From: a virus
IMG/VR virus record: IMGVR_UViG_3300012944_000032
Reading direction: 5' to 3' (one strand)
Length of the DNA: 43,988 bases
Shown: piece after piece, positions 1 through 26,459 of the stretch
Numbering within the stretch: position 1 is the stretch's first letter
How the letters are laid out: every line of letters starts with the position of its first letter
Program-made: the position numbers and the translations under genes
Notes under the pieces: generated by a model
Databases searched by the model: none
Told to the model about the DNA's origin: nothing
What the model saw: the letters and a program-made list of their open reading frames with translations, nothing else

Positions 1-123
1 AGTCTCGAAAAATCAACAGGTTGCGGTCGGGCGGACGTTCTTTTCTGTTACGACACATTACGACACATTACGACACATTACGACACATTACGAGCGACGT
101 TTCGCGTAAGATTCGCTTCTGAG
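1..123. repeat. Left copy of the exact 123-bp terminal direct repeat
   Basis: Bases 1..123 (agtctcgaaaaatcaacagg...gattcgcttctgag) are identical to 43866..43988. Confidence 0.95.
48..97 (+). repeat. 10-bp tandem array, 4 perfect CGACACATTA units (51..90) plus a degenerate unit
   Basis: ttaCGACACATTACGACACATTACGACACATTACGACACATTAcgagcgacg. The period is exactly 10 bp. It lies inside the terminal repeat, so a second copy sits at 43913..43962. Confidence 0.95.
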
Positions 124-158
124 TCGTGATGCAAGAGTAGCTTGAATTACTTGCAAAG

Positions 159-347
159 CTAGCCGTTTGTAATTAGGATTGAGGCGATGTTCGAGAGTGG
201 AAGAGACTTCATTACCTCGCTGTTCTGAAAGTAATGCAGAATCATCAATTCAGATGCCAGTTCGCTGTTCTGAGGATAGATTGTTGCCGTTCTGACATTC
301 TGAATTTGTTCTGGTTCCCTGTTCGTGAAACAGATATCTAGTATCAT
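159..347 (-). CDS. Hypothetical small protein (62 aa), doubtful
   Basis: ATG preceded by AAGGAA about 5 nt upstream. However, the ORF spans the CAGAAC repeat array and sits in an otherwise non-coding region. Confidence 0.3.
   Translation of the reverse strand: MILDICFTNREPEQIQNVRTATIYPQNSELASELMILHYFQNSEVMKSLPLSNIASILITNG
217..320 (-). repeat. Cluster of CAGAAC-core repeats, including the exact 12-mer TCAGAACAGCGA twice
   Basis: Plus-strand tcgctgttctga at 217..228 and 262..273 (45-bp period). Related copies are gccgttctga 286..295, attctga, ttgttctgg and ctgttcg. Confidence 0.8.
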
Positions 348-522
348 GTAAATTCCTTTGATGAAAGAATTAATGTAAACATAATTGAAAGCATGAAGTG
401 GGAAGAGAAGTGACTGGCAAGCAACGCTGATTAGGCGTCAAGGAAACCAGTTCTAAGTCTTGCATTCCATTTATCAGGCCTAGCTTTGGATGCTAGTCGA
501 GCTGAACGAAGTGAGGTGAGCG

Positions 523-1095
523 TTACTTCTTATCGAATTGCTTGCTGAATCCGGGCTTGATGAGTGCAACAGCATCTTCAAGCGGGACATTCGCACCACG
601 GGAATAGTTCCTTACAACGAGACGGAACTGAGTCTGGGCTTCAGGTGCCCAGCTAAGGTCAACGAACTCGGCCAATGGGTCAGATGCAGCCGTGTAAGCA
701 GCATCGTTGAATCCATCAATTAGGTAAGAGACGAGAGTTGGCTCATCTTTTACCGTAGTGATGTCCATGAACATCTGAATAGACGTTGGCAGAGTTTCTA
801 CCTTGCTGCGGTCGAATGCTTCCCAATCAATTACGATTGGATTCTTTCCACGAGTCTGACCAACCTGAACACGAACACCAACACCAGTTCGCTTGGCATT
901 CGTTTCATCAGCATCGACTTCACGGAGCTGCTGATTCAAATCACGAGTAACCTTCTCATCCTTTGATTCAGCAAGTTTTGCACGAATCGCAGCACGTTCC
1001 TTCTCGTAGTCTCGGACTGTGACTAATTCCTGTGGTGACGTTGCCTGTGTAGCCATTCCTGTCATTCCTTTTCCCGCGACTATCGTGCGCAGCAC
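523..1095 (-). CDS. Hypothetical early protein (190 aa from a GTG start; ATG starts at 1065 or 1056 are more likely)
   Basis: Long ORF directly downstream of a consensus sigma70 promoter. Visibly more GC-rich than the rest of the genome. No motif recognised. Confidence 0.8.
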   Translation of the reverse strand: MLRTIVAGKGMTGMATQATSPQELVTVRDYEKERAAIRAKLAESKDEKVTRDLNQQLREVDADETNAKRTGVGVRVQVGQTRGKNPIVIDWEAFDRSKVETLPTSIQMFMDITTVKDEPTLVSYLIDGFNDAAYTAASDPLAEFVDLSWAPEAQTQFRLVVRNYSRGANVPLEDAVALIKPGFSKQFDKK

Positions 1096-1125
1096 GGGGC
1101 GAAATTGCCCGTCTTCCCTGAAACG

Positions 1126-1154
1126 ATTATATCATGATTTGTGCGAAGTGTCAA
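1126..1154 (-). promoter_or_regulatory. Consensus sigma70 promoter with extended -10, reading leftward
   Basis: Minus strand reads TTGACA-cttcgcacaaatcatga(17)-TATAAT, with TGa immediately 5' of the -10. Upstream are (GCGAA)x3 and a T8 run. It is about 25-60 nt upstream of the candidate starts of 523..1095. Confidence 0.8.
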
Positions 1155-1534
1155 GCGCGAAGCGAAGCGAAAAAAAACCCAGGACCAGACTATCGTCTAG
1201 ATGCACGGCAGTTCATTCCGTGTCTCCGTTACTCTAGCTACATACTAGAGAGTGAATGATATCGCGTCACGAATAGTCCAGAGTCTAGGTATCCTCATGC
1301 TAGTCTTTTATTGCCTGTCGCGATAGACAGTAGGACTAGACTTACAGAGAACTTCCACCTAACTTTGCGAGCAATTCAGCGTATCGAACCTTGCGCCGTC
1401 GTCCCATACCCTACTACTACATGGGTCGTGCCAAGGCCCAAACCACAATATGTTGTGGTGTCAATCTGTGAAGACCCTATATGTTGGGGTGGCATATTAC
1501 CAAATTGTGATGCAACTAACGTCAATCGTAAGTT

Positions 1535-1965
1535 TGCACATTCTATCACTAAATTTCACATAAGAAATGATGTATAGTAGTGTGCAGTAGCAAGCAAAGA
1601 TGTAAATTACAATTCTAAATTGTACATTATGTCACCAGACTGCACACTTTAGCCAGTTTTGGCTCATTGTACACATTTGCATGTAATTGCACAATATTTC
1701 AATTGGCACGGCTTATGCCTATTACATATATGGTATGTGGCACATAGTTTGAACTGCATAAATCTGCACTGGCACGACTCTTGCCTTTACAGAATGACAC
1801 AGGGTTGCACTGGCATGATGTATGCTGTGTTCACTCTACTGCACATGTGCAATCCTGACTCAGCCGGTGTCATAGTGTGCAAGTCTTTCACATAGCTGCA
1901 CAATTCTTACTAAGAATTCATATCACAGGGGTATACATAGCTGCACGTAAGGTTCCATATGTGCA
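1535..1965. repeat. Dense array of TGCAC/GTGCA motifs in non-coding DNA
   Basis: At least 13 TGCAC/GTGCA occurrences counted by eye in about 430 bp. Includes the perfect palindrome TGCACATGTGCA (1840..1851), GTGCAC (about 1960), and ACATAGCTGCAC twice (1890..1901 and 1935..1946). Confidence 0.85.
1704..1826 (+). promoter_or_regulatory. Three to four GGCA-N7-TGCC dyads, equally readable as sigma54-like TGGCAC-N5-TTGC elements
   Basis: The sites are tTGGCACggcttATGCC (1704..1719), TGGCACgactcTTGCC (1770..1785, a perfect -24/-12 consensus), TGGCATgatgtATGCT (1811..1826), and a weaker TGGCACatagtTTGA (1738..1752). Confidence 0.5.
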
Positions 1966-2080
1966 CAAAATTTCCGGATATTAATCGTATTTGTGTCATC
2001 ATATTATTTAATCACATTTGTATGTTATCATTATTTAATTATTCATCAATTAAAAGCTGGTTCCATATGTGGTTCCATAC
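1951..2080 (+). repeat. GGTTCCATA(TGTG) repeated three times, flanking AT-rich direct repeats
   Basis: ggttccatatgtg occurs at 1951..1963 and 2059..2071, and ggttccatac at 2071..2080. Between them, ATCAT(AT)TATTTAAT occurs twice (about 1998..2013 and 2027..2040). Confidence 0.8.
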
Positions 2081-2167
2081 AACGTACTATGAATTATGAT
2101 GCTTTCAAAAAATGAAATCTTCAACGGCTACGCCGAGTTTTCCTAGGGTTTATGCGATGTTTACCTC

Positions 2168-2196
2168 TTGACAAACGGCTTCGCCGGGTGTATGAT
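2168..2196 (+). promoter_or_regulatory. Near-consensus sigma70 promoter for the rightward (late/structural) arm
   Basis: TTGACA(2168..2173)-aacggcttcgccgggtg(17)-TATGAT(2191..2196), about 45 nt upstream of the first plus-strand gene. Confidence 0.75.
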
Positions 2197-2238
2197 GACA
2201 ACCACAGGAGAAGTGTATTACCTCGCAAGTAAAGGGAT

Positions 2239-2637
2239 ATGTGTATGCTACTTGAAGAAGAAGAATTAAAGAAGAGAATGGAATCTCCTATGAATCTTCT
2301 TAATAAGCTTAAGAGCGCAATAAATCCACATACCATTTCCATTCCAGCTTTGCCACCTTCATCTGATGATGTTATTGATGATATTGAACAGAAGATTACA
2401 ATTGGTTCCATCAAAGGTAAAGCTCTAGGTCTTATGAGCTCTGCATTAGATGAGCTTAAAGCTAAATTGCCAGAAGTAAGTAGACCTGAAAAGCTTGCTG
2501 CAATAGCTGCTGATATGGGTAAGGTTATCAATAACACTGAACAGCGTAAAGATGCACCTGTAGCACAAGCTCAAATTATTATTTATGCTCCACAGATGAT
2601 GGACGAGAATGTATTTAACGTAGTCGAAGTTGAGTAA
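2239..2637 (+). CDS. Hypothetical protein (132 aa; start at 2245 is possible)
   Basis: First ORF after the rightward promoter. AAGGGA lies 7 nt before ATG 2245. Its stop overlaps the next start (TAATG). Confidence 0.7.
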   Translation: MCMLLEEEELKKRMESPMNLLNKLKSAINPHTISIPALPPSSDDVIDDIEQKITIGSIKGKALGLMSSALDELKAKLPEVSRPEKLAAIAADMGKVINNTEQRKDAPVAQAQIIIYAPQMMDENVFNVVEVE

Positions 2638-3113
2638 TGCCTGATATCTTAGCGGCTATTAAGAAGGTTAAGGGAGAACAGCCGGACCAGGCTGACACTT
2701 CTGTAGAACCACGTGGCTTATTTGGTCGTCTGTTAGGTGGAAACTCACAAGCGACAACCAATCCATTCACTGGAAGCATTAGCTATAATCCAGAAGCATT
2801 GAACAAGCTATCGCCTCCTGAATTGGAGAATTTGATGGTACATGAATTAACTCATTCTAGACAAGTTCAACAAACACCTTATTTACAGCGGCTAGGTTCA
2901 GTCATGCAATCGATGATTCCTGGTATTGGTAATGAAGATTATTACCAGCGTCCTAGGGAGATGGAAGCGTTTCAAGCAGAAAGAAACAGGAGCATGCAGC
3001 AGGGTCAAAGTGTTCCAGACCCTGCTAGTGGAGCAACAGATATTAACCTCCCTGCACCATCTCCACGTCGTAAGATACTTGGAATGTTTACTAATGATAG
3101 AGGAACTCGATGA
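2637..3113 (+). CDS. HExxH zinc-metallopeptidase-like protein (DUF4157-like)
   Basis: The motif LMVHELTHSRQVQQ, followed by EMEAFQAE, resembles the DUF4157 HELxHVxQ signature. Confidence 0.55.
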   Translation: MPDILAAIKKVKGEQPDQADTSVEPRGLFGRLLGGNSQATTNPFTGSISYNPEALNKLSPPELENLMVHELTHSRQVQQTPYLQRLGSVMQSMIPGIGNEDYYQRPREMEAFQAERNRSMQQGQSVPDPASGATDINLPAPSPRRKILGMFTNDRGTR

Positions 3114-3799
3114 AGGTATATATTGGCGTACCTACATCTGAACAAGCTCGGCATGCAGCATTCTATGATTATCTCTCGCTGCTTGAGAAGCCAGAAGGTA
3201 CTTGTGGTGCTAGCTTTCATTCTAATACCGCTGCATATAATCGTAACTTGATTATTGATGATGCACTAGCCGCTAAGTCGAGCCATGTTTTGTTTATTGA
3301 CGATGACATGGCTATGCCTACTGATTCACTCATCAGGTTGCTATCACATGATAAAGATATTGTTTCAGGACTCTATGTAAACAGGCAGTATCCTCATCCA
3401 CCTGTTATCTTCAATTTTATAAATGGTACCATGTCTAGGATTTATCTAACCCCAGAGAACGCAGGTTTGATGGAGGTTAGTGCGGCTGGATTTGGTTTTC
3501 TTTTGGTTAAGACGAAAGTCTTTGCAAGTCTTGATAAGCCTTACGTGAGGAATGGTGAGATTGTTAAAGATAGACGCAATGAAGATATAGACTTCTGTAA
3601 TAGAGCACGAGCGGCTGGGTTTAAGATTTATTGTGATTTAGATTGCCCTATTGGACATATTGGAACTACTACATTCTGGCCTGCATTCTCTGAAGGTAAA
3701 TGGGCAACAACCATTGATACTGGAGGAGATGAGGTATTCGTAGCAGCACAGAATCCTACAAAATTTGGTGAGATTAGAACACCTTTGACTAAATCATAA
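3110..3799 (+). CDS. GT-A fold (family 2-like) glycosyltransferase
   Basis: DxD motif LFIDDDM. Clear paralog of the N-terminal domain of 13275..14489 (AFYDY, LFxDDD, HDKDxVSGLY, HxPVIF). Confidence 0.7.
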   Translation: MKVYIGVPTSEQARHAAFYDYLSLLEKPEGTCGASFHSNTAAYNRNLIIDDALAAKSSHVLFIDDDMAMPTDSLIRLLSHDKDIVSGLYVNRQYPHPPVIFNFINGTMSRIYLTPENAGLMEVSAAGFGFLLVKTKVFASLDKPYVRNGEIVKDRRNEDIDFCNRARAAGFKIYCDLDCPIGHIGTTTFWPAFSEGKWATTIDTGGDEVFVAAQNPTKFGEIRTPLTKS

Positions 3800-3807
3800 A
3801 ATTTATA

Positions 3808-4125
3808 ATGAAATGCAGAGATTTTTTATCATTTCTTCTATCAACGCCGTTAGCAGCGGTGATTGATTATGAAAAACTTTTTTGGGTTAAAGAGAAGACT
3901 ATATTTCTGACTGCAATAGCCCCAGTTGAATTTAATTACGATATTGTTATCCCATCACATTGGTCATCTGGAATTGGCAGACAAATAATAGATACTATAA
4001 ACGATACAGAAGTTAAATATAGATTAATTAACAGAGCCGAGGCCATTAAGAGGGGTATCCTTATCAAAGGTCAAGGATTGGAAGATATTGATATGTATAT
4101 TAGGAACATGCAAAAACTGAAATGA
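3808..4125 (+). CDS. Hypothetical protein with a hydrophobic N-terminus
   Basis: ORF packed in the operon. N-terminus is MKCRDFLSFLLSTPLAAVI. Confidence 0.6.
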   Translation: MKCRDFLSFLLSTPLAAVIDYEKLFWVKEKTIFLTAIAPVEFNYDIVIPSHWSSGIGRQIIDTINDTEVKYRLINRAEAIKRGILIKGQGLEDIDMYIRNMQKLK

Positions 4126-4373
4126 CTACTGCGGCGGTCATAGGTATTCTATCACTAGTCATTACATTTGCAATTTTTGTATTAAATGTCACATTTAAGT
4201 TAGGACATCACGCTGCCAGATTAGAAGCTCTGGAGAAGTGGCGTGATGGTATCAGAGATGATATGCATGAGATATCAGATAAGATGGAAGCAATGTTAAT
4301 TAACTTCCAAACATTAACTACACTAATTGAAGAACGAACTGAACGAAGAACATCAGCAAGGATGGCTCAGTGA
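4122..4373 (+). CDS. Small membrane protein (N-terminal TM helix plus coiled coil); holin or i-spanin-like candidate
   Basis: AAVIGILSLVITFAIFVLNV followed by a charged helical tail. ATGA-type overlaps on both sides. Confidence 0.6.
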   Translation: MTTAAVIGILSLVITFAIFVLNVTFKLGHHAARLEALEKWRDGIRDDMHEISDKMEAMLINFQTLTTLIEERTERRTSARMAQ

Positions 4374-4720
4374 AAAAGATTCTATTTAGTATTTTGTTTC
4401 TTCTATTTGCAGTGCCAGGATATAGCCAGGTTACAGCTACAGTGCAATGGAATATGCAGGAATCTCCTGCTACAGCACAAACATTTACTTACACATTGAA
4501 AATTGATGCGGCAGCTCCTACGACTCTTACCCCTGTCACCTGCAGCACAGTTAACGGAGTTAGCACTTGTAGTGCTTCTGTTGCTAATTATACTGTGGGT
4601 GTGCATACTGTTATCTTGACTGCATCAAATGCTAACGGCTCATCCTCTGGTACATTTGTTACTGGTGCTAATCCATCAGTGCCAACGGCCGGAAAAGTTA
4701 TTGTAATCATTATTCAGTAA
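4370..4720 (+). CDS. Secreted protein with a Sec signal peptide and an Ig/FN3-like beta domain
   Basis: MKKILFSILFLLFAVPGYSQ followed by a Thr/Ser/Ala-rich beta-strand pattern. Confidence 0.6.
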   Translation: MKKILFSILFLLFAVPGYSQVTATVQWNMQESPATAQTFTYTLKIDAAAPTTLTPVTCSTVNGVSTCSASVANYTVGVHTVILTASNANGSSSGTFVTGANPSVPTAGKVIVIIIQ

Positions 4721-4764
4721 TATCGCATCGCATGAACAATATCGCACCGCATCAATAAACATAA

Positions 4765-6375
4765 GTGGCTTTCACAACTGGAGAATGGAAACCTACTAGG
4801 AAACAAGAGATATTTCTATCTCTGCCATTATCAATTAAAGAAGCATTGTATGGTGGAGGAGCCGGTTCCGCCAAAACAGACGTTCTCTTAATCTACGCAT
4901 TAGTTCATAAATGGCATGAACATCCTGGGTTTAAGCAAGTGTTCATGCGTCGTACATTCCCTGAACTTCGTAATGAAGTGATTCCACGTAGTAGACAATT
5001 ATATCCTAAGTTTGGTGCAACATTAAATAAATCGGATATGGCATGGACATTCCCTGCGCCAGACCAAATTGGCGGAAGAGGATTGTCAAACGCGGGAGCA
5101 ATGATTTTCCTTGCACAGTGTGAGGACGAAAATGACGTACATAAATATGATTCTATGGAAATTAACTTATTTACTCCCGATGAGCTTACTTCTTTTCTTG
5201 AGTACATTTATTTGTACGTTGGGTTTACTCGTGTACGTACTAGTATCCCTGAACTCCCGGCAATAATTCGAGCCGCTGGCATGCCCGGTGGAGTAGGACA
5301 TACATTCACAAACAAAAGATTTGTATCACCGGCTAAGCCAGGCACTATCATTGTCGGACGTGGTGGAGTTAAACGCATTTATATTCACGCTACGTTAGCT
5401 GACAATCCTCACATCGACCCGGCCTACAGACAATCACTAGAAGCATTACCAGAAGCTGAAAAGAGAGCTAAGCTCTATGGGGACTGGAATGCTTATTCAG
5501 GTCAGGTATTTGACGAGTTCAGAGATAGAAGATATCCTGATGAACCAGATAATGCATTACATGTAATAGATGAATTTGAAATTCCAGCTTGGTGGCCTAG
5601 AATCCTCATTGGTGATTGGGGATTTGCGGCTATGACTTGGTTAGGTTGGGGAGCTATTAGTCCTAATAAAAGATTGTATATTTACAGAGAACAATCATGG
5701 ACTAAAACTAAGATTGAGGAATGGGCACCAATTGTTAGGGAATTGATTGATATTGACCATCCGAGAATGATTAAGTTTTGTAAATCTGCTGGCCAAGAGC
5801 ATGGTCAGGAACATACTATTCAGGAGCAGATTAGTGATGCTCTAGACTTCCCAATTGAGCTAACTAATAATAGTCCGGGCTCTAGAATCGCTGGCAAACA
5901 ACTAATTCATGAGTATATGAGATGGAGGTCAAAGCCAATCTCGATTAAGGAGAAAGCAGCATATAGTGAAGAGCACTCAATGTGGCTTCTTCGTAATAGA
6001 GGAATGAATGAATACAAGTCATACATGATGTCATTTATTGAGCCAGCAGAAGAATCTAATCTACCCAAGTTACAAATTTTTAGTTCCTGCAAGTTGCTCA
6101 TTGATGCTATTAAAGCATGTTCATACGACAAGAAGAAGATTGAGGATATTGCTGCATTCGCTGGTGATGACCCTATCGATGGACTTCGTTACTTGGTAGA
6201 TGCAGCAGAGAATTACTTTGAAATTGCGGCTGATGAATTCAAAAGGATTCAGAAGCAAGAAGAGTTAGTTCATAAGCTAAGCAGTGATAATGATTTTACT
6301 GCATTCTATAGACAGATGAGAACAGCTGAATCAGATGAATCATATAAACCAATTCGCATGTTTCATCATAGATAA
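4765..6375 (+). CDS. terL: Terminase large subunit
   Basis: GTG start. Walker A-like YGGGAGSAKTD. Nuclease-domain acidic motifs IGDWGF and GDDPIDGLRY. Located upstream of the portal. Confidence 0.88.
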   Translation: MAFTTGEWKPTRKQEIFLSLPLSIKEALYGGGAGSAKTDVLLIYALVHKWHEHPGFKQVFMRRTFPELRNEVIPRSRQLYPKFGATLNKSDMAWTFPAPDQIGGRGLSNAGAMIFLAQCEDENDVHKYDSMEINLFTPDELTSFLEYIYLYVGFTRVRTSIPELPAIIRAAGMPGGVGHTFTNKRFVSPAKPGTIIVGRGGVKRIYIHATLADNPHIDPAYRQSLEALPEAEKRAKLYGDWNAYSGQVFDEFRDRRYPDEPDNALHVIDEFEIPAWWPRILIGDWGFAAMTWLGWGAISPNKRLYIYREQSWTKTKIEEWAPIVRELIDIDHPRMIKFCKSAGQEHGQEHTIQEQISDALDFPIELTNNSPGSRIAGKQLIHEYMRWRSKPISIKEKAAYSEEHSMWLLRNRGMNEYKSYMMSFIEPAEESNLPKLQIFSSCKLLIDAIKACSYDKKKIEDIAAFAGDDPIDGLRYLVDAAENYFEIAADEFKRIQKQEELVHKLSSDNDFTAFYRQMRTAESDESYKPIRMFHHR

Positions 6376-6383
6376 AGGATAAT

Positions 6384-6809
6384 ATGTTTAGCTGGCTTCA
6401 TCACATATTAGAGCCTCATTGTCAACAGTGCAGAGAGGAACGACAAGAAGAGAGACAAGAAGATTCTGTCTGTGCATCTTGTGAAACATTAAGACTTCAG
6501 CTTGAAATTGCTAATTATGAGAAACGTCAATTATTGGAATCTATTCTCAGACCACAGCAAAGTGTCCCATCAGCAATACAGGGAACTCCTCAAGCATTAC
6601 AACCTAAATCAATTCCTTGGAGTGTGCGTAAGCAAATGCTTGAATCTGAAGATAGGAAACAGGCACAGCTTATGAGAGAGGCTCAAGAGCAATCAAATAA
6701 ATTAGCTACATCAATTCCACGAGGAACAGGTGGTGATTTATCAGTTTCTATTAAAGAATCACAAAGTATTGAATCACTGGAAAGAGAACTTGGCGTAGAT
6801 GACGTATAA
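6384..6809 (+). CDS. Hypothetical protein (CxxC..CxxC N-terminus plus coiled coil)
   Basis: CQQCREERQEERQEDSVCASCE, then a Q/E-rich helix. Confidence 0.6.
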   Translation: MFSWLHHILEPHCQQCREERQEERQEDSVCASCETLRLQLEIANYEKRQLLESILRPQQSVPSAIQGTPQALQPKSIPWSVRKQMLESEDRKQAQLMREAQEQSNKLATSIPRGTGGDLSVSIKESQSIESLERELGVDDV

Positions 6810-6822
6810 GGAGCTTAACTAA

Positions 6823-7002
6823 ATGGCGATTGGTCCATCAGGTGGAATGCTTAAGAAAGTATTTGACCCATCTACTATGAAAAGGAAGACTAAGGCAGCT
6901 CTTGGATATGCTAAGAGCGGTGGTCCAGATATTAAGAGTGCTAAGCCGTTCACAAAAGGCTCTAAAGGTTTGAAGTTAATGAATAGTAAAGGTGAAGACT
7001 AA
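6823..7002 (+). CDS. Small basic protein (59 aa), below the ORF-track cutoff
   Basis: AAGGAG lies 9 nt upstream of the ATG. My translation is MAIGPSGGMLKKVF...NSKGED. TAATG overlap with the next ORF. Confidence 0.6.
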   Translation: MAIGPSGGMLKKVFDPSTMKRKTKAALGYAKSGGPDIKSAKPFTKGSKGLKLMNSKGED

Positions 7003-7160
7003 TGCCTGCTAAATCTGAAAAACAATATAAATTTATGCAGATGATGGCTCACAATCCTGAGAAGAAAAAGACTAAGGGACCAGGACCATCACCAGAAGTA
7101 GCGGAAGAATTTATTAAGAAGACTCCTGCTGCAAAACGTAAGCAATTTGCAAAGAAGTAA
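7002..7160 (+). CDS. Small protein (52 aa), DUF3008-like
   Basis: My translation is MPAKSEKQYKFMQMMAHNPEKKKTKG...KRKQFAKK. The MPAKSxKQxxFM opening resembles DUF3008. The stop abuts the portal ATG. Confidence 0.5.
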   Translation: MPAKSEKQYKFMQMMAHNPEKKKTKGPGPSPEVAEEFIKKTPAAKRKQFAKK

Positions 7161-9491
7161 ATGACAGCAAAAGAACAAAGAAATGATAAGGTTCGTAACT
7201 TGCTTAAGCAGGTTGCAAATCATTTCGACCAAGAGGATAGAGCCGCTCGTGAGCGTCAATTAAGGAATTGGCGGCGGCTCAAGCTCCTTTGGGAAGGATT
7301 TCAGAGAGTATGGTACTCTGAAGTTGCTCATGATTGGCGCATTTGGGACGAAGAGATTAGCAACGCCGATAACGACCAGGCGTTTTATGATAAACCAATC
7401 AACGTATTTCGTGCCTATTTGGAATCTCTAATAGCTGCATTGTCAATTACGATTCCGGGTATTAAATGTTATCCTGACGATGCAGATAATCCTTTAGATT
7501 TAAGTACAGCTAAAGCTGGTGATAAAATTGCAGAATTAATTTATAGACATAATGATGCACCTATTCTCTGGTTGCATGCATTGTATATTAATATGACTGA
7601 GGGTATGACTGCTTGCTACTCATATCCTAAAGCAGATAATAAATTTGGAACTTATAAAGAGAATGAATATAAAGATGAAACTTCAGAAGTTTACATTTGT
7701 CCATTCTGTCAGCAGCAATTAGATGATGATTTATTTACTAAGCAGGAAGTTGATGAGTTTCAGCCAGATGATGACGATGTAGAACTTCATGATATCATTC
7801 TGAATCAAAATAAAGTAGTTTGCCCACAGTGCGCAACAATGTTAGACCCAGACTTGCAGAAGAGTTCACTAGTTGTTACTAGACTTGTTGGACAGAAAGA
7901 TGTTCCAAAGTCTAGAATTTGCATGGAAGCATATGGTGGTTTGTACGTAAAGGTACCAAATTATGCGATGAAACAGGAAGATATTCCATATTTAATCTTT
8001 AGTTACGAAACACATTATTCTAATGCTCTTGACAGATATGAACATTTGAGAGCTAAGTATACTGGCACTGGCAAGATTGGTGCTGCTGGCGGAGGAATGT
8101 ACGACCCGTATGAGCAATGGGCTAGACTCTCACCTCAATATCGTGGTGAGTATCCTACTAATAATGTTACTGTTCGCAATTGTTGGCTTCGCACTTCTGC
8201 TTTTAATATTTTAGCTAACGAAGAAGATATTGCTTTATTGAAGAAAGAATATCCTGATGGGGCTAAATTAGTTCTAGTTAACGATGAATGGGCCGAAGAC
8301 GAAAATGAGAGTCTTGATGATTGCTGGACCATTATCAAGAATCCTCTATCTGATTACATTCATTATTATCCTACAGGCTCATTGCTAGTTAGTGTACAGG
8401 ATATCACAAGTGACTTGATTAGTTTGGTATTGCAAACGATTGAACATGGTATTCAGCAGACATTTGCTGACCCTGGGGTTTTGAATTTTGAGAAGTACCG
8501 CCAAGCTGAAACAATGCCTGGTGGGGTATATCCTGCCATTCCTAAGACTGGTAAGTCGGTTAGTGATGGATTTTTTGAGACTAGAACTGCTACGCTGAGT
8601 CAGGAAGTGTTGCCATTTTTCAATATGATTCAGACGCTAGGTCAATCAGTTTCAGGAGCACAGCCTAGCCTATTTGGTGGGCAGCTTAGCGGCTCGAGAA
8701 CTGCATCTGAGTATTCAATGTCTAGAGCACAAGCTCTGCAGAGACTTCAGAATACTTGGAAGACATATACTCTTTGGTGGAAGACAATCTTTGCTAAAGT
8801 TATCCCAATGTATATTAAAGAAGTTCAAGAAGATGAGAAATCTGTTGAAAAGAATGAACAGGGTAATTTTATCAATGTATTCATTCGTAAAGCAGAACTC
8901 GAAGGTAGAATTGGTCGTATTGAACTAGAAGCCAACGAGAATCTACCAATTACATGGTCTCAACGTAAAGATACTTATATGGATTTGCTAAAACTTCAAA
9001 ATCCAGAAATCCTGAAAGCTCTTGCAGACCCAGAGAACGTTAAGTCTCTTGTTGAAGCTATTGGACTTGATGACTTTACTGTTCCTGGAGAAGATGATAG
9101 ACAAAAGCAGTATGAAGAAATTAGACTTCTAATTAATTCTGAACCTATTACGGTACCGGCTGACCCACAGCAAGTGGTAATGGCGTCTATGCAAGGAATG
9201 CCGCCTCCCCTGGATATTGAATTACCATCAGTTGAAATTGATCCTGACTTAGATAATCATGATATTGAAGCAGAGACATGTCGTACTTATCTAGTATCTG
9301 ATGCTGGACGGTTACTTAAACTTGAGAACCCGCTTGGCTATAAGAACGTGTTACTGCATATGAAAATGCACATGCAGGAAATTAAAATGAGCATGGCTCC
9401 CCCACAACAGCCTGGAATGCCATCTCCACCACAGCCAGCAGGCAGTAATATGCCTCTAGCAGGAAATTCAAATGTTGCTGCACAAACTTAA
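7161..9491 (+). CDS. Portal protein (776 aa)
   Basis: Size and position (terminase, then this ORF, then scaffold, then capsid). Contains an inserted CxxC...CxxC element at 7698..7832. Confidence 0.7.
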   Translation: MTAKEQRNDKVRNLLKQVANHFDQEDRAARERQLRNWRRLKLLWEGFQRVWYSEVAHDWRIWDEEISNADNDQAFYDKPINVFRAYLESLIAALSITIPGIKCYPDDADNPLDLSTAKAGDKIAELIYRHNDAPILWLHALYINMTEGMTACYSYPKADNKFGTYKENEYKDETSEVYICPFCQQQLDDDLFTKQEVDEFQPDDDDVELHDIILNQNKVVCPQCATMLDPDLQKSSLVVTRLVGQKDVPKSRICMEAYGGLYVKVPNYAMKQEDIPYLIFSYETHYSNALDRYEHLRAKYTGTGKIGAAGGGMYDPYEQWARLSPQYRGEYPTNNVTVRNCWLRTSAFNILANEEDIALLKKEYPDGAKLVLVNDEWAEDENESLDDCWTIIKNPLSDYIHYYPTGSLLVSVQDITSDLISLVLQTIEHGIQQTFADPGVLNFEKYRQAETMPGGVYPAIPKTGKSVSDGFFETRTATLSQEVLPFFNMIQTLGQSVSGAQPSLFGGQLSGSRTASEYSMSRAQALQRLQNTWKTYTLWWKTIFAKVIPMYIKEVQEDEKSVEKNEQGNFINVFIRKAELEGRIGRIELEANENLPITWSQRKDTYMDLLKLQNPEILKALADPENVKSLVEAIGLDDFTVPGEDDRQKQYEEIRLLINSEPITVPADPQQVVMASMQGMPPPLDIELPSVEIDPDLDNHDIEAETCRTYLVSDAGRLLKLENPLGYKNVLLHMKMHMQEIKMSMAPPQQPGMPSPPQPAGSNMPLAGNSNVAAQT

Positions 9492-10782
9492 TCTGACACC
9501 GTTCTTTGCTCCTGTAGATACTAGTAATGGCGTTGGTGCTATCGAAGATAAAGCATTATCACGTGATGAAGTTATTGACATGCTCGGTGAAGACGAGCCA
9601 GAATCAGAAACTCTTGAATTGGAAAAGCCTGCGAAAAAAGCAGCTAAAGATAATAATGAAGAAGATAAAGAAGAAGATAAAGATGATAAGGAAGAAAAAG
9701 AAAAGACCTTAGAAGAGGAAATTGAAGAGGAACTTGAAGAACCAGATGAAGACAAGTTAGAACTGACTGTTCCTATTCGTCGTAAGGAAGTTCTTGCAAA
9801 GTATCCTAATATCTTCAAAGAGTTTCCAGCTCTTGAAACATCTATGTATCGCGAAAGAGCTTATACAGAGATTCTTCCAACTATCGATGATGCAAAGATG
9901 GCAGTTGAAAAATCAGAAAGGCTGGATACTTATGAAAATGAAATTCTAAACGGTTCAACAGAATCTATTCTGACAGCCGTTCTCAACTCTGATAAAGACT
10001 CATTCAATAAAGTTATAGATAATTATCTCCCTACATTGTACAAGGTTAATGAAGCAGCTTATTATCATACTCTTGGAAATGTAATTAAGCATACCATTAT
10101 GACGATGGTTAAAGATGGGAAAGATAATGGTATTGATGATTTGATTGCAGCCGCCGATGTTGTTAATCAGTACATCTTTGGCAGCAAACAATTCACGCCA
10201 CCTCAGAAACTCTCTACTGATAGTGCAAAGAGTAAAGAAGTTAACGAAGTAGAAGAGAGAGAACAGAAGTTCGTTCAGCGTCAGTTTGATACGGCTAGGG
10301 ATAGTGTTACCACTAAAACAGAGAATATCCTAAAAGCTACGATTGATAAAAACATTGACCCCAATGAGTCAATGACTAATTATGTTAAGAAGAATGCTAC
10401 TCGTGAAGCGTACGAGCAGTTAGAATCTACTATTGCAGTCGATTCCAGATTTCGGATTGTTTTGGATAAACTCTGGGAGAAGGCTTTTAGTGATGATTTT
10501 AGCACAGAGTCAATGGACAGAATCAAATCAGCCTACTTGTCCAAGGCAAAGACTCTACTGCCATCTATTATCAAGAAGAATAGGAATGAAGCACTTAAAG
10601 GACTCGGTAAGCGAGTCCGAGATGATGATGAAGATACTAATAAGAGAGATAAGAGAGGTCCACTACCTGTTGGCAAGGCAAGGAGTCAATCCACCTCCCC
10701 TCAAAGTGGAAAGACAGTAAAGGACCAAGCTAGAGCCATTCCAAAAGGAACGAGCACTCTAGACTACTTGATGCGAGATTGA
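9472..10782 (+). CDS. Scaffolding protein
   Basis: Highly acidic and Lys-rich, helical (EEDKEEDKDDKEEKEKTLEEEIEEELEE). Lies between portal and capsid. Confidence 0.6.
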   Translation: MLLHKLNLTPFFAPVDTSNGVGAIEDKALSRDEVIDMLGEDEPESETLELEKPAKKAAKDNNEEDKEEDKDDKEEKEKTLEEEIEEELEEPDEDKLELTVPIRRKEVLAKYPNIFKEFPALETSMYRERAYTEILPTIDDAKMAVEKSERLDTYENEILNGSTESILTAVLNSDKDSFNKVIDNYLPTLYKVNEAAYYHTLGNVIKHTIMTMVKDGKDNGIDDLIAAADVVNQYIFGSKQFTPPQKLSTDSAKSKEVNEVEEREQKFVQRQFDTARDSVTTKTENILKATIDKNIDPNESMTNYVKKNATREAYEQLESTIAVDSRFRIVLDKLWEKAFSDDFSTESMDRIKSAYLSKAKTLLPSIIKKNRNEALKGLGKRVRDDDEDTNKRDKRGPLPVGKARSQSTSPQSGKTVKDQARAIPKGTSTLDYLMRD

Positions 10783-10792
10783 GGATACTAAC

Positions 10793-12040
10793 ATGGCACT
10801 TGTTGAGTCTCAAGTCACAGCACTTGAGCTTGAAAGAGTAATCCCGAAGATTCGTACTCTCTTTGAGAGAGACGATAAGTTCTTTTCAAACATTCAGAAG
10901 AGGGATGTTGAAAAGATTTCTAACCGTCAGATGCGAGTTCCTCTTGAACTGCGTCCCGGTGGCTCATTTCAGTATTTCAATCCTGATGGTGGAGATTTGG
11001 GACGTGGTGGTGGACCAACCTTCGATAAGGCTGTTCTCTCATGCGTGTTCGTCTCAGAGAATATTGAATATACCAAGCTAGCTCAGTGGGCAACCGATGA
11101 TGATAGAAAGTCTATTGTCAATGGTGTGCGTCGTCTTACAGCTACGGCATTAGATGAACTCCGGCGTCAGCTGGATTCTCAGATGATGCAGGCTGGAAAT
11201 GGTGTTATTGGTACTGTTACCACTGATACACCTGCCGGTGGAAGCAATGTTATTACACTAACAACTGATGGATTTGGTGCTCGTCTGATGCGCTTTGGTC
11301 AGACAGTTCAAGTCTTTAACGCTGCCCTCTCAACAAATCGTGGTAGCGGTCTTATCACGAATTGGGATGTTGAGAACAAAACCATTAGTATCACTCCTCA
11401 GATTGCTGGTGTGATTGGTACTGATGTGATTGTTACCAACGGCATCACTGCACCAACTGCATTGCCTGCTCTGTTTGGTATTCCATACCATCATAGCAAT
11501 GCTTCTACTGGTACGTGGCTTGGATTCTCCAGGAGCACTACACCAGAGATTCGTGCAAACAGAGTGAATGCAGCTTCGGCTGCTCTCACATTGCCTCTGC
11601 CACGTCTTGCTATCAATAAGATTGGTAACAGGATTGGTATTGACAACGACTTCTCTCCAAATGCATGGATGCATCCTGCTCAGAAGGCAGCTTATGAAGA
11701 GATTGGGCAGCTCATGTCCACTATCTTCAAGAAGCCTACTGATGAAAGTCTTAACGTCTATTTCGATGGAATGCAGATGGCTGGCGCACCAGTCAAATGT
11801 TCATTCAATTGGGATAAGACACGTATTGACTTCGTAACGGATTCAGTGTGGGGACGTGGTGAAATTCTCCCACTTGGATTCTATACTACTGATGGAAGGA
11901 ATATCTTTGAAATTCGTGGGGCATCTGGCGGTGTTGCTACGGCAGAGATCTTCTACATGGTTATTGGTACTCAGACATTCGTCAATAACCCTGCTGGCTG
12001 TGCATTCATTGACACGCTAGCCGTTCCTTCGGGGTATTAA
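10793..12040 (+). CDS. Major capsid protein
   Basis: 415-aa ORF after the scaffold. GAGGA SD. Called by position and size. Confidence 0.65.
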   Translation: MALVESQVTALELERVIPKIRTLFERDDKFFSNIQKRDVEKISNRQMRVPLELRPGGSFQYFNPDGGDLGRGGGPTFDKAVLSCVFVSENIEYTKLAQWATDDDRKSIVNGVRRLTATALDELRRQLDSQMMQAGNGVIGTVTTDTPAGGSNVITLTTDGFGARLMRFGQTVQVFNAALSTNRGSGLITNWDVENKTISITPQIAGVIGTDVIVTNGITAPTALPALFGIPYHHSNASTGTWLGFSRSTTPEIRANRVNAASAALTLPLPRLAINKIGNRIGIDNDFSPNAWMHPAQKAAYEEIGQLMSTIFKKPTDESLNVYFDGMQMAGAPVKCSFNWDKTRIDFVTDSVWGRGEILPLGFYTTDGRNIFEIRGASGGVATAEIFYMVIGTQTFVNNPAGCAFIDTLAVPSGY

Positions 12041-12041
12041 C

Positions 12042-12257
12042 ATGGCAGCAACAGTAACAGTGACAGGAACTGCTGGACCAGGACTTACCGTTACAGCAGT
12101 TGTATTTACTAACGTAACATCTTTTCAAGTTGATACAGTCAACAATATGTTAAACATGATTCAGGGTAGTGTTCCATTGCCTGGCATTGCTGTGCAAGCG
12201 GCTACTACTGTTACCGCTACGAAGAGTGGTAGCACTTGGACACTAACAATTAGCTAA
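12042..12257 (+). CDS. Small Thr/Val-rich virion-associated protein (71 aa)
   Basis: Immediately follows the capsid gene. All-beta composition. Confidence 0.6.
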   Translation: MAATVTVTGTAGPGLTVTAVVFTNVTSFQVDTVNNMLNMIQGSVPLPGIAVQAATTVTATKSGSTWTLTIS

Positions 12258-12292
12258 CTAGGAATCTATCTTTATGGTGGAGGAGGAAAAGA

Positions 12293-12598
12293 ATGATTCC
12301 AGGTCTAACAACAAAGTTATCAGAAACTAACGTAGCAGCAGCTGCATCTATTTTTGCAAAATCTGACGTTGTCAGGGTTACTGACACTACTAGCACCACA
12401 GTACTGACCACAATCGTACCAGGTGGTGCTGGTTTTAGTCAGGTAATCTTTTTGCAAAACAAAACAGCTGCTGCAATTACTATTGTTACTACTGGAAATG
12501 TTTCCGGTCAGGGCACATTTACTATTGCAATAAATAGAATGGCTGTATTGGTATTTAGTAAGTTAGAAGCTAAATGGTCAGTTTGCAACGACACGTAA
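12293..12598 (+). CDS. Small beta-rich protein, paralog family member 1
   Basis: Strong SD GGAGGAGG. Shares TTIVPGG...TTGNVSG...MAVLVFS...W with the next two ORFs. Confidence 0.7.
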   Translation: MIPGLTTKLSETNVAAAASIFAKSDVVRVTDTTSTTVLTTIVPGGAGFSQVIFLQNKTAAAITIVTTGNVSGQGTFTIAINRMAVLVFSKLEAKWSVCNDT

Positions 12599-12610
12599 AG
12601 GAGAATTTAA

Positions 12611-12922
12611 ATGCCGGACCTTAGTTTCCAGGATATCTCTACAGTACAAAATTCACTGCAGCCTAAACCTGTAACATTCGTGGCTGCAGCTACTATTTCT
12701 CCAGTAACATTTCTTACAATTCTTACTGGTAACACATCGGTATCAACGATTGTACCGCCTGTTACTGGTTCACATATGTTGGCTATTGTTCCTGGTACCA
12801 CTCTTGGTTTTACTACTGGTGGTAACGTGACTGGTGGAACAACTACTATTTCTGGAAGAGCAGTATTGCTTGTATACAATCCATTGACTAATGGGTATGC
12901 TGCTCAGTTTTCGAATGGGTAA
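12611..12922 (+). CDS. Small beta-rich protein, paralog family member 2
   Basis: SD AAGGAG. Shares STIVPPV...TTGGNVTG...RAVLLVYN. Confidence 0.7.
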   Translation: MPDLSFQDISTVQNSLQPKPVTFVAAATISPVTFLTILTGNTSVSTIVPPVTGSHMLAIVPGTTLGFTTGGNVTGGTTTISGRAVLLVYNPLTNGYAAQFSNG

Positions 12923-12970
12923 CTAGACAAGGAGTGGGGTGCGCATACACATCACGCACACTGGAGTGTT

Positions 12971-13243
12971 ATGGTTTCATTAAGTTTAGGAAGTCCTTTA
13001 ACTGTTATTGATAATACTATTACACCTACTCATGATGTTCATCGTGTCTCTGGTGAATATCCAGCTGTTATTAAAACTATTAATATTCCAAATCCGAGTT
13101 TTTGTGGTATGTTAATATTAATTGTAGATGGCTGGCTTGCATTTGAGGCTGGAGGAAATGTTATACCAAGCTCTGCACATGACCAACAACCAACTATTTT
13201 GATATATGACACTGTAATAGAAAAATGGTGCCCAAGTGCATAA
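12971..13243 (+). CDS. Small beta-rich protein, paralog family member 3
   Basis: Shares KTINIPNP...EAGGNVIP...TILIYD...W. Confidence 0.65.
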   Translation: MVSLSLGSPLTVIDNTITPTHDVHRVSGEYPAVIKTINIPNPSFCGMLILIVDGWLAFEAGGNVIPSSAHDQQPTILIYDTVIEKWCPSA

Positions 13244-13274
13244 TATAATTTTATATTGCCAGAATTGAGTAGGC

Positions 13275-14489
13275 ATGACTAAAGTTTTAGTAGCTGTTCC
13301 AACTGGTGAAACATCTAGATATGCTACTTTCTATGATTATTATAATCAATTAGAGAGGGCTGAAGGAACTCTTCATATGTTTGCTAGAGGCCAATCACCG
13401 GCTAAAGGCAGAAATATGATGATTCAGGCAGCTATTGATAATGAATGCACTCACATCTTATTTCTTGATGACGATGTAATTCCTCCGTCAGATATTCTTA
13501 AGAAGTTGCTAGCTCATGATAAAGATGTAGTATCAGGTCTCTATCCAATGAGGGATTTTCCACATTATCCAGTAATATTCGACAAGAGATTTCAAAACGG
13601 ATTTAATAGACACACTCATCTCAAGAGTGAAATTGACGGTCTAATTGAAATTACTAATTGTGGTTTTGGATGTGTATTGATTAAGATGCACGTTTTTAAT
13701 CTACTTAAAAAGCCTTGGGTTACTCTTGGTGAGTTAGAAGCTGACGGCTGGTGTGATGACATTGCATTCTTCAATAAACTTGGGGATGCTGGCATCAAAA
13801 TGTACTGTGATACCAGCGTACTTGTTGACCACATGATGACAATTCATGTTGGTTTTAGACGTGTTAATGATAGTTGGATGATTAATTATGATAATCGGGG
13901 TAAAGGTAATTTACAGTTTCCAATTACATATCCATCTTCTGACGTTGATATTGCAAGGCGTATCGATGGATGGTTATCAGATAAAGAATTAGATTTTCTT
14001 GGGGTAGCTGGTAAGACATACAAATATATCCTCGAGGTTGGTTCTTATAAGGGTAAGTCAGCTAGGGCATTTGCAGATAATACATCTGGACAAGTAATGT
14101 GCATTGATACATGGAATTCTGTTGTTTGTGGTGCAGATGGTAAGCCAATCTACACAACAAATGATGCTACTTATGTAGATTTTGTAAAGAATTTACAAGA
14201 ACATATCGAAACTAAGAAGGTAATTATCAATAGAATGAATTACAAAGATTTTGTTCCCAATGGTTTCAAGCCTGACTTTATTTTCATTGACGCTGCTCAT
14301 GATTATGAATCAGCAAAGCATGATATTGAAAAATCTATGTCAATGAATCCTTGGATTATTGCAGGTCATGACTATGATTCAAAAGTATGGCCTGGCGTCG
14401 TTAAAGCTGTGGATGAAAAATTCAGCAAAATCAACCTCGTTGATACAATTTGGTGGGTGGAAAATGACAGATTTGGTGAATCCGTTTGA
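13275..14489 (+). CDS. Bifunctional GT-A glycosyltransferase / class I SAM-dependent methyltransferase fusion
   Basis: N-terminal half is paralogous to 3110..3799 (LFLDDDV). C-terminal half has GWLSDKE, ILEVGSYKGKSARAFA, FIFIDAAHDYES and AGHDY, a Methyltransf_24-like pattern. Confidence 0.75.
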   Translation: MTKVLVAVPTGETSRYATFYDYYNQLERAEGTLHMFARGQSPAKGRNMMIQAAIDNECTHILFLDDDVIPPSDILKKLLAHDKDVVSGLYPMRDFPHYPVIFDKRFQNGFNRHTHLKSEIDGLIEITNCGFGCVLIKMHVFNLLKKPWVTLGELEADGWCDDIAFFNKLGDAGIKMYCDTSVLVDHMMTIHVGFRRVNDSWMINYDNRGKGNLQFPITYPSSDVDIARRIDGWLSDKELDFLGVAGKTYKYILEVGSYKGKSARAFADNTSGQVMCIDTWNSVVCGADGKPIYTTNDATYVDFVKNLQEHIETKKVIINRMNYKDFVPNGFKPDFIFIDAAHDYESAKHDIEKSMSMNPWIIAGHDYDSKVWPGVVKAVDEKFSKINLVDTIWWVENDRFGESV

Positions 14490-14700
14490 TCCTCTTGTTC
14501 CTGTTGAACCTGTAGTAGAACCAGAACCTGAAAAAAAACCTGTAGAACCAGAAGTACCAGTAGTAGAACCTGAGCCTACAGAAAAAGCAAAACTTCTTTT
14601 ATCTATTCAAGATGCACTAGCGGAGGCTAATGGACTTGAATCAAATATTGGTACTAGCCATCCATATTGGGGTTGGGTTAATAAGTATCGTGGAATGTAA
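14464..14700 (+). CDS. Small Pro/Glu/Val-repeat protein (78 aa)
   Basis: ATG at 14464 within the longer ORF 14359..14700. Sequence is VPVEPVVEPEPEKKPVEPEVPVVEPEP. Overlaps the 3' end of the GT-MTase gene. Confidence 0.5.
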   Translation: MTDLVNPFDPLVPVEPVVEPEPEKKPVEPEVPVVEPEPTEKAKLLLSIQDALAEANGLESNIGTSHPYWGWVNKYRGM

Positions 14701-15284: not shown

Positions 15285-15285
15285 A

Positions 15286-19024: not shown

Positions 19025-19032
19025 AGATAACT

Positions 19033-19200
19033 ATGCCACTGAATCCGCCACAAAACTTTCGTAAATATATTTCACTTCATAGGCGTGGTCTAGCCGCTAA
19101 TAGGCCAAACGCAGCTGATGTATTGCCAGGAACATTATATTTTTCTACAGATACTTTAGTTTTAGAACGGTCTAATGGGACCATCTGGGAAAGTTACTAA
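19033..19200 (+). CDS. Free-standing 55-aa copy of the fibre N-terminal module
   Basis: My translation is MPLNPPQNFRKYISLHRRGLAANRPNAADVLPGTLYFSTDTLVLERSNGTIWESY. It aligns with residues about 9-48 of 19554..20321. Confidence 0.55.
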   Translation: MPLNPPQNFRKYISLHRRGLAANRPNAADVLPGTLYFSTDTLVLERSNGTIWESY

Positions 19201-19209
19201 GGAGACAGA

Positions 19210-21363: not shown

Positions 21364-21366
21364 AAC

Positions 21367-26456: not shown

Positions 26457-26459
26457 CTA

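Follow-up and report, generated by a model that had tools for sequence, protein, structure and literature searches.

A gene-free control region with sigma-54-type sites and a structured element in a family of uncultured phages

A non-coding region shared by the family

The virus genome analysed here (IMG/VR record IMGVR_UViG_3300012944_000032; the window is this whole stretch of 43,988 nucleotides) contains at 1096-2238 a gene-free stretch of 1143 nt, which carries, between two outward-facing promoters, a cluster of sigma-54-type sites, an element predicted to fold into three stems, and several families of short repeats. The window is a complete genome in the form of a circular assembly of ~43,867 bp, bases 1-121 recurring at 43868-43988, and the gene-free stretch sits where gene orientation switches. 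Rightward genes extend from 2245 to ~28.4 kb, with the terminase (at 4765) and the structural genes among them, and the leftward replication and early genes extend from 43510 down to 28371. This leftward block encodes a fusion of uracil-DNA glycosylase (UDG) and PolA, an SNF2 helicase, a DUF3987 protein and a PD-(D/E)XK nuclease; the fusion (31010-33466, - strand) is a protein of 818 amino acids (aa) in which a UDG-superfamily domain is joined to a family A DNA polymerase. The two promoters that bound the stretch are both of the sigma-70 type: the leftward promoter PL (1126..1154, - strand) is TTGACA-N17-TATAAT with an extended TG and matches the consensus at 12/12 positions, and the rightward promoter PR (2168..2196, + strand), TTGACA-N17-TATGAT, matches it at 11/12. 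PL serves the lone gene 523-1065 and PR the operon starting at 2245.

No stretch of the genome longer than 1096-2238 is left uncovered by open reading frames (ORFs) when those of 40 aa or more are called on the strand that dominates locally. Two ORFs starting at TTG are present in it, 1311-1577 (88 aa) and 1659-1895 (78 aa). Six-frame tblastn of its stop-to-stop segments against all relatives gives only matches of 18-44 aa, and the same DNA blocks give such matches in more than one frame and on either strand; conservation is thus at the level of nucleotides and not of a reading frame. The region is non-coding, without a conserved reading frame. The original prediction, made from the sequence of this genome alone, had described the stretch as gene-free, had dismissed the two TTG ORFs and had placed the two promoters at 1154-1126 and 2168-2196, and it was right on all three points. 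It had also stated that the genome has otherwise almost no intergenic DNA, which has to be corrected: under permissive ORF calling, the uncovered stretches of at least 100 nt are 1096-2238, a 156-nt gap at 34525 and 43694..522, the last belonging to a second gene-free stretch of ~0.7-0.9 kb (43511/43694..522). Finally, the large spacer was called unusual for this phage, and it turns out to be a feature of the whole family.

Relatives were gathered via the terminase, via an alignment of the 523-1065 protein (in IMG/VR) and from metagenomes; the single 523-1065 protein used as query retrieved no relatives, whereas the alignment did. The same architecture is found in more than 40 metagenomic relatives, whose sample names indicate soil and groundwater. 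In every relative the homologues of 523-1065 and 2245-2637 are divergent and 1.1-2.2 kb apart, and the order of the features between them is constant. PL is followed by the folded element, in some relatives by small leftward ORFs, and by a cluster of TGGCA-N7-TGC motifs; then come phage-specific short repeats, the blocks GGGG-ATA, GGTYCCAT and CGGATATTAATC, and an AT-rich stretch; a second GGTYCCAT, the element TTCAAA-N3-TGAAA-N2-TTCA and PR complete the series. One relative (L127, 97% identical) was excluded from footprinting and is taken as an error-prone sequence, because its differences are mostly single-base indels, even in the coding gene. Taken together, these comparisons support the view that 1096-2238 is a real, selected control region and not junk.

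The phage itself is remote from known isolates. Its terminase is at most 30% identical to that of any isolate, and its polymerase is nearest to those of Microcystis, Desulfofustis and spring-water phages, at 25-27%. No nucleotide match for 900-2500 was found in 50,697 phage records, a host search gave no match among 185,579 species genomes (one genome per species), and the copies at NCBI are metagenome contigs. One homologue of the 2245-2637 protein, P0155, is deposited as a protein of a Nitrososphaera metagenome-assembled genome, on a 2.6-kb contig; this label is probably a binning error, because the promoter motifs of the phage are of the bacterial sigma-70 and sigma-54 types.

Sigma-54-type sites and the folded element

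The genome was scanned with a weight matrix built from 28 intergenic Salmonella sigma-54 sites enriched in chromatin immunoprecipitation (ChIP) (PMC3844500, Table 3). The Salmonella sites themselves score 14.2-22.3 bits when each is left out in turn. The five best positions of the phage genome, over both strands, all lie within 1433-1811, and the sixth best, located elsewhere, reaches 11.4 bits. Four of the five are on the + strand: site 1 (TGGCACGGCTTATGCCTA, 1704..1721, 17.7 bits), a degenerate sigma-54-like site lacking the -12 GC (TGGCACATAGTTTGAACT, 1738..1755, 13.5 bits), site 2 (TGGCACGACTCTTGCCTT, 1770..1787, 21.2 bits), which has the highest score in the genome and approaches the upper limit of real sites, and site 3 (TGGCATGATGTATGCTGT, 1811..1828, 14.6 bits). 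The sequence TGGCACGACTCTTGC at 1770 fits the textbook YTGGCACG-N4-TTGC exactly, and several relatives have a site orthologous to site 3, with a similar spacer (GGCATGATTTATGC). The fifth is a weak leftward sigma-54-like site (TGGCACGACCCATGTAGT, 1416..1433, - strand, 12.6 bits), also without the GC of the -12 element, located ~45 nt upstream of the folded element in the leftward sense.

This clustering exceeds what base composition would give. The pattern TGGCAYG-N4-WTGC has three copies, all on the + strand between 1704 and 1825, for 0.08 expected genome-wide, and when 1400-1900 is shuffled 2000 times with its dinucleotides preserved, the matches average 0.14 and never exceed 2, versus five observed. 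Across seven relatives, the density of GGCA-N7-TGC in the region is 14 times that found outside it; the other spacings, N4-N6 and N8-N11, are not enriched (0-1.9-fold), and the rare N3 is 6-fold denser on counts of 2 and 3. When 22 relatives are anchored on the TTCAAA element, their intergenic DNA contains 62 matches of at least 12 bits (1.82/kb) and their downstream coding DNA a single one (0.03/kb). All but one of these relatives (21/22) have a match that reaches 12 bits, in 16 of them the best match equals or exceeds the lowest score of a real site, and the matches cluster 200-500 nt to the left of the anchor, at a median of 369 nt. By its matrix scores, the sigma-54-type motif is thus of promoter grade and confined to this region across the family.

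The composition of the motif points in the same direction. A logo of 46 phage sites, obtained by a search that makes the TGGCA half invariant by construction, has T as the base preceding GG in 72% of the sites, GGCA followed by Y and then R, and TGC flanked by W on either side; the second half-site is conserved only as TGC plus W, and because TGGCA is better conserved than this second half, the asymmetry resembles that of sigma-54 sites and not that of a palindromic operator. The spacing of 10 bp from GG to GC that a sigma-54 promoter requires is present. In the face-to-face pairs that occur in relatives (see below), the two arms agree only at consensus positions and their 4-nt spacers differ, which argues for selection on each protein site and not on a hairpin. 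With fair confidence, the motifs are taken as sigma-54 binding sites, sigma-54 being the likely protein to bind them; that they fire as promoters may also be proposed, with less confidence.

The second main component of the region is the three-stem element HP (1267..1362, - strand), of ~95 nt, with stems of 7, 6 and 5 bp, conserved internal loops and a GCGWWA-type loop. The block is conserved in six relatives, where its nested inverted repeats change in concert. In a MAFFT alignment, which is not fitted to structure, 79% of the cells are paired versus 32-44% in slid controls, and 11 pairs show double changes versus 3-5. A covariance model (R1) detects the element at 51 loci, and at each of them it keeps the same relative strand and a place between PL and the cluster of sigma-54 sites. 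For 47 distinct sequences, in an alignment that is fitted to the model and with which the unfitted MAFFT alignment agrees, 92.5% of the cells are paired versus 25-46% in slid controls, compensatory changes occur in 18/18 pairs with 261 compensatory cells versus 24-54, and the covariation score is 0.77 versus 0.04-0.16. At the sequence level, these results establish the folded element as a real and well-supported structured motif, with about 50 known members. It is probably read as RNA in the leftward sense: pairs compatible with G.U number 21 on the - strand versus 7 on the + strand, wobble pairs being rare overall, and the - strand folds at -22 kcal/mol (z -2.1), the outer stem of this genome needing G.U there.

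Rfam 15 gives no match at E up to 1 over positions 1-3000 on either strand. An intrinsic terminator was considered and rejected, as no T-run follows the stems on either strand and the terminator scan does not report one. The position of the element is consistent with a structure that would process or stabilise the 3' ends of leftward transcripts: in three relatives (L010, L031 and L007), it starts 40-93 nt past the stop of unrelated small leftward ORFs. Phage T7 has RNase III processing hairpins between its transcription units, and the present element is like them in being irregular, with ~18 stacked bp, asymmetric internal loops and no U-tract, and in lying between transcription units. No sequence similarity to them is expected. 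Unlike in the T7 hairpins, the internal loops, read leftward as AAUAAAAG and GUAAGU, show strong sequence conservation here, which suggests a specific protein partner and not a generic double-strand nuclease.

The small leftward ORFs of these relatives (L010 4672-5229, L031 4758-5273 and L007 5125-5316; one or two in each) are mutually unrelated and lie between the sigma-54 cluster and the folded element; neither such ORFs nor their remnants are found in the region of the present genome. A second small hairpin, CACGG-N9-CCGTG (1203-1224), is located between PL and the folded element. Both of its arms are changed in L010 (CGCCG / CGGCG), and the block is seen in these two lineages only, so that its support is thin.

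Outer promoters, repeats and neighbouring genes

Both outward promoters keep their position and sequence in every relative examined: the -35 and the extended -10 of PL are unvarying in six relatives, and CTTGACW and TAnnnT of PR are kept in all. Upstream of PR, the element TTCAAA-N3-TGAAA-N2-TTCA (2104..2123), a putative operator or activator site, is centred near -93 and -85 of this promoter. Its columns are invariant in nine aligned relatives, and it occurs once in the genome. The distance from its start to the -35 is 64 nt in 19 of 26 relatives; in the other seven it is 52-53 nt in four, that is about one helical turn less, 63 in two and 56 in one. The element is thus, judging from these spacings, helically phased to PR, and this phasing to the -35 ties it functionally to the promoter. 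Class I activator sites of the CRP type lie near -61.5, -71.5, -82.5 and -92.5. The TTCAAA element is similar to them as an inverted repeat at a fixed distance from the -35, with an alternative spacing about one turn off, but it matches no regulator site that we can name with confidence and, because PR already has a consensus -35, repression or an architectural role is as likely as activation. Just upstream of PR, AACGGCTACGCCGAGTTTT (2125-2142) combines a 4-bp hairpin and a T-run; a near copy fills the spacer of PR (2174-2189), and three relatives (L004, L006 and L011) have other small hairpins at this position. The AACGGCTACGCCGAGTTTT hairpin may terminate rightward transcripts from the inner cluster.

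To the left of the TTCAAA element, conserved blocks at 1928..1986, aligned in eight relatives, consist of GGGG-TATAC, of TGCAC-N16-TGCAC around GGTTCCATA, and of CCGGATATTAATC. They are followed by the AT-rich stretch (1981..2057), which includes a 27-nt tandem pair (1981-2034) and varies in length among relatives while staying AT-rich, and by two copies of GGTTCCATA with a 12-nt period (2059..2079, + strand), a third copy lying at 1951-1959. Three of the four exact copies of GGTTCCATA in the genome are in the region, and GGTYCCAT is kept in most relatives. RNAalifold, applied to nine relatives over the PR-proximal 330 bp, gives only an invariant inverted repeat and no covariation, and these blocks are therefore treated as DNA sites. 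No tRNA or tmRNA was found.

The most abundant short repeat is the TGCACA family (YTGCACAMT), with 10 exact copies in both orientations at 1535..1967, arranged in two clusters (1535-1693 and 1840-1967) that flank the sigma-54 sites. These are 10 of the 28 copies of TGCACA in the genome, for 0.44 expected (P 5e-11), and their spacing is irregular. The 1535-1693 cluster lies between the weak leftward site and the rightward sites, 16-169 nt upstream of site 1, and copies are also found 102-148 nt upstream of the weak leftward site; sigma-54 enhancers are located ~80-150 bp upstream of their promoters (PMC3844500). The copies match no verifiable activator site, and a search by eye for dyads of the NtrC type (TGCAC-N7-GTGCA) gave none. 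Enrichment of TGCACA is limited to a few phages, others being enriched for different words (GAGTCATAT in L004, AGTGTAT in L031, CATATAG in L011). At one orthologous position, two repeat copies lie 21 bp apart around a conserved GGTTCCATA / AGTTACATA core, and the repeated word is TGCAC in this genome, L010 and L006, ATCCNTTAG in L031 and CTTCGT in L009. As the words differ at an orthologous position, the repeats behave as sites of a protein with diverged specificity. The TGCACA copies are candidate enhancer sites, which would be bound by a specificity-determining protein. The 108-aa early protein encoded at 42280-42606 (- strand), which looks SpoVG-like by eye and has no match in Pfam or PHROGs, is a candidate repeat binder. 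Smaller families have two copies each: the 27-nt AT-rich tandem pair, ACATAGCTGCAC and AACGGCTWCGCCGRGT. A palindrome, CCACAA-N4-TTGTGG (1443..1458), is also present in one relative (L004).

The second gene-free region (43511/43694..43867 joined to 1..522) is separated from the first by the leftward gene 523-1065. It contains a leftward promoter, TTGACT-N17-TATAAT (43692-43664, - strand), six GTGTCGG repeats with a 10-bp period (43552-43617), and 4.6 copies of TTACGACACA (48-93) that share the GTGTCG core with the former array in inverted orientation; an AT-rich tract (43733-43775) lies between the two inverted arrays. This layout, with (TA)n tracts, is kept in eight relatives, each with its own repeat words, and in these respects the second region looks like a replication origin, an early operator, or both.

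The gene 523-1065 (- strand) stands alone between the two gene-free regions. Of the genes compared at this locus it is the most conserved (64-84% identity over 34 homologues of its product), and 718 homologues were found. The product has no family in Pfam or PHROGs and no sequence match in the PDB; its AlphaFold model (pLDDT 87.5) shows a long helical N-terminus, a basic beta-hairpin and a helical domain, and finds nothing better than E 0.2 in the PDB or BFVD. The first gene of the rightward operon, 2245-2637, encodes a small helical protein without an assigned family, which matches no terminase family in Pfam, PHROGs or PDB profiles, and whose model is poor (pLDDT 68) and without a fold match. 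Its homologue directly precedes the large terminase in one relative (L070); elsewhere variable genes intervene, and the genes between 2245-2637 and the terminase (a glycosyltransferase and small membrane proteins) vary among relatives. The second gene of the operon (2637-3113, + strand) has a HELTH (HExxH) metalloprotease-like motif; in several relatives it is apart from the first gene or missing beside it. In the leftward block, 39581-40087 (- strand) encodes a protein with a long Tyr/Asn/Ser-rich low-complexity stretch, coded by 6-24-nt tandem repeats at 39808-39901.

A proposed enhancer-dependent transcription hub and its alternatives

Several functions had been listed for the stretch in the original prediction. 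Of these, a regulatory hub and a source of non-coding RNA are the best supported, by the layout kept in more than 40 relatives, the operator-like element phased to PR and the RNA structure backed by covariation, while a partition site is without support, no match to the ParA/ParB families being found among the early proteins scanned. Two further items of that list, a packaging site and a protein-sequestering decoy, keep some probability and are discussed below. Covariation analysis across relatives, which had been suggested as a check, was run and favours the folded element, with none in the PR-proximal 330 bp. The repeat families that had been noticed are real, and they include TGCACA, TGGCAYG-N4-WTGC, GGTTCCATA and several two-copy families; what had been missed is the sigma-54 -24/-12 identity proposed here for one of them, together with the element 1267-1362, the operator-like TTCAAA element upstream of PR and the second non-coding region.

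All these results lead us to favour, tentatively and at a little under an even chance, a reading in which the region is an enhancer-dependent transcription hub, with the sigma-54 cluster nested between the sigma-70 promoters PL and PR. Host polymerase with sigma-54 would sit at the sites as closed complexes and would fire only in the presence of an active enhancer-binding ATPase, the interspersed repeats (TGCACA here, other words in most relatives) being the candidate enhancers. Transcripts of the cluster would depart both ways: the leftward ones would enter the three-stem RNA element, which as a 3' structure before PL would serve in processing or stabilisation, and the rightward ones would read through the conserved blocks into the operon of PR, a promoter that would be further controlled by a conserved factor acting on the TTCAAA..TGAAA..TTCA element. 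In this sense the region combines, in an unusual way, parts of familiar kinds with a single structured element that is new.

The likeness to bacterial sigma-54 promoters extends from the motif, its GG-N10-GC spacing and its flanking base preferences to scores within the ChIP-verified range, to an intergenic position between divergent units and to repeats at enhancer-like distances. Bacterial sigma-54 promoters include divergent pairs served by a single enhancer, and hycA/hypA stand as neighbouring sigma-54 sites in the Salmonella list (PMC3844500). In contrast to bacterial promoters, however, the phage sites often number 3-7 per locus, have a balanced orientation, frequently overlap face to face, have neither a nearby enhancer-binding gene nor a gene immediately downstream, and prefer A over T before TGC. 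The Pseudomonas phage YuA, a lytic siphovirus (Yuavirus), is likewise a phage with host sigma-54-type promoters: in its record NC_010116, three promoter-trap fragments located among late genes are annotated with a -24/-12 consensus, and a mapped transcription start has been associated with one sigma-54-like promoter region (PMC10914365). The YuA sites are single, dispersed among structural genes and co-oriented with them, whereas those described here are stronger, clustered, in gene-free DNA and in both orientations, and YuA has no sequence relationship with this region.

Several observations weigh against the hub. The YuA promoters score below 11.3 bits with the Salmonella matrix, so that the precedent is a loose one. 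All four + sites of this genome point to the right, but this consistency fails across relatives, where orientation is evenly divided (31+/31-), and copy number varies from 0 to 7 per relative, which is odd for a core promoter. Four relatives (L010, L007, L011 and L047) have no site above 12 bits, and a fifth (L068) has only one match, of 12.8 bits, outside the assumed intergenic span. Relatives also contain eight face-to-face pairs with an offset of 30-35 nt, in which the start of each site is inside its partner, so that two polymerases could not bind a pair together. TGC is preceded by A in 23 of 46 phage sites versus ~3 of 28 Salmonella sites (our own tally), and many phage sites run on as TGCTATA; these preferences could reflect a different host or a different protein. 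The DNA that follows the rightward sites shows no conservation of sequence, RNA structure or ORF, and in the 23 relatives scanned the 300 nt ahead of the hairpin contain no conserved promoter of either the sigma-70 or the sigma-54 type. Concerning the activator, no PF00158 match is found in early proteins of at least 250 aa and no GAFTGA or ESELFGH signature in the six frames of the whole genome. Scans of the early proteins for regulators, sigma factors and partition proteins likewise gave nothing recognisable. As the phage encodes no enhancer-binding protein, an activator of the host would be needed.

Alternatively, the sites could serve as an orientation-independent, high-affinity array that captures the host sigma-54 holoenzyme, either as a sink that disarms the host responses dependent on sigma-54 or as a sensor of stress or starvation, and that acts jointly with a new class of structured RNA at the hub's edge. 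We consider this rather unlikely, although not negligible; if the array were a sensor, phage expression would be coupled to the enhancer-binding proteins of the host. The pure form of this idea, a DNA decoy by which the replicating genome titrates a scarce sigma factor into stable closed complexes and thereby silences sigma-54-dependent host responses or parks polymerase near PL and PR, seems to us improbable. It would account for sites of high quality devoid of promoter logic in their orientation, number and downstream sequences, for their packing ~32-34 nt apart or as overlapping pairs, for the missing activator, as the sigma-54 holoenzyme makes stable closed complexes without one (PMC3844500), and for the lack of sites in some relatives, as expected for an accessory, host-specific function. 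However, a face-to-face pair holds one holoenzyme only and thus adds no capacity, a parked holoenzyme also withdraws core polymerase required by the phage itself, the sites are constrained in where they lie relative to the conserved blocks, for which a pure sink would have no need, and a literature search yielded no precedent for a sigma-factor decoy made of DNA.

The conserved blocks upstream of PR could alternatively belong to a packaging region (pac/cos), bound by the 2245-2637 product as a proposed small terminase, with the phage-specific repeats as specificity sites and the conserved core as the cut site. In lambda-type sites, phages share the nicking site but have different terminase-binding sites, an arrangement that the invariant core blocks between phage-specific repeats 21 bp apart resemble; the place of the 2245-2637 homologue immediately before the large terminase in L070, and the contigs of three relatives (L006, L009 and L013) that end inside the region, also speak for packaging. 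Nevertheless, this explanation has little probability in our view: the proposed small terminase lacks a terminase family match, a good model and a fold match, the assembly break of this genome is elsewhere, the strict phasing of the invariant element to the -35 indicates promoter control, and the sigma-54 motif would be left unexplained.

It is more doubtful still that TGGCA-N7-TGC is the site of a conserved phage protein, such as the 523-1065 product, acting as a symmetric oligomer on 32-bp palindromic pairs. The fixed 32-34-nt offset of the face-to-face pairs does resemble two-fold symmetric protein sites, the ATGC and TGCTATA preferences are unlike enterobacterial sigma-54 sites, and the 523-1065 protein, the most conserved of the locus, has a confident fold without match and its 718 homologues. 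Against this, ~12 informative positions, the 10-bp spacing from GG to GC and the Y/R preferences at -21/-20 fit an independent sigma-54 model at the scores of real promoters, which makes convergence of a phage-protein site unlikely; moreover, this genome has tandem sites only and no pairs, and the far better conservation of TGGCA than of TGC+W is the asymmetry of sigma-54 sites. Least probable is a replication origin, with TGCACA as iterons, 1981-2057 as the unwinding element and transcription from the inner promoters activating or priming replication: although the repeats are phage-specific, in both orientations and next to an AT-rich tract, at the gene-orientation switch, and although a promoter plus a downstream AT-rich tract is what constitutes the T7 and T4 origins, the irregular spacing and mixed orientation of TGCACA do not fit the phased direct repeats of iterons, DnaA boxes are absent from the region, GC is not the lowest nearby (0.35 at 2001-2400 versus 0.33 at 3801-4200, in 6 kb profiled), and the reading is lowered because the arrays at 43552-43617 and 48-93, across the leftward gene and with a layout kept in eight relatives, make the second region a better candidate.

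The enhancer-dependent hub, if it exists, would bear on how phages control their genes. Phages are generally thought to use the main sigma factor of the host, sigma factors of their own or polymerases of their own. Sigma-54 is silent unless an ATP-driven activator acts on it, and there is little documentation of it in phages, YuA being the one case found. With such a promoter-grade cluster throughout the family, these phages would either tie part of their programme to a signalling ATPase of the host, for which nitrogen, membrane stress or RNA-damage stress are candidate signals, or manipulate the sigma-54 pool. The 95-nt element adds a new structured motif. With hundreds of metagenomic members, as judged from the 718 homologues of the neighbouring gene, the family offers a compact and conserved architecture for studies of phage regulation in uncultured soil and aquifer systems.

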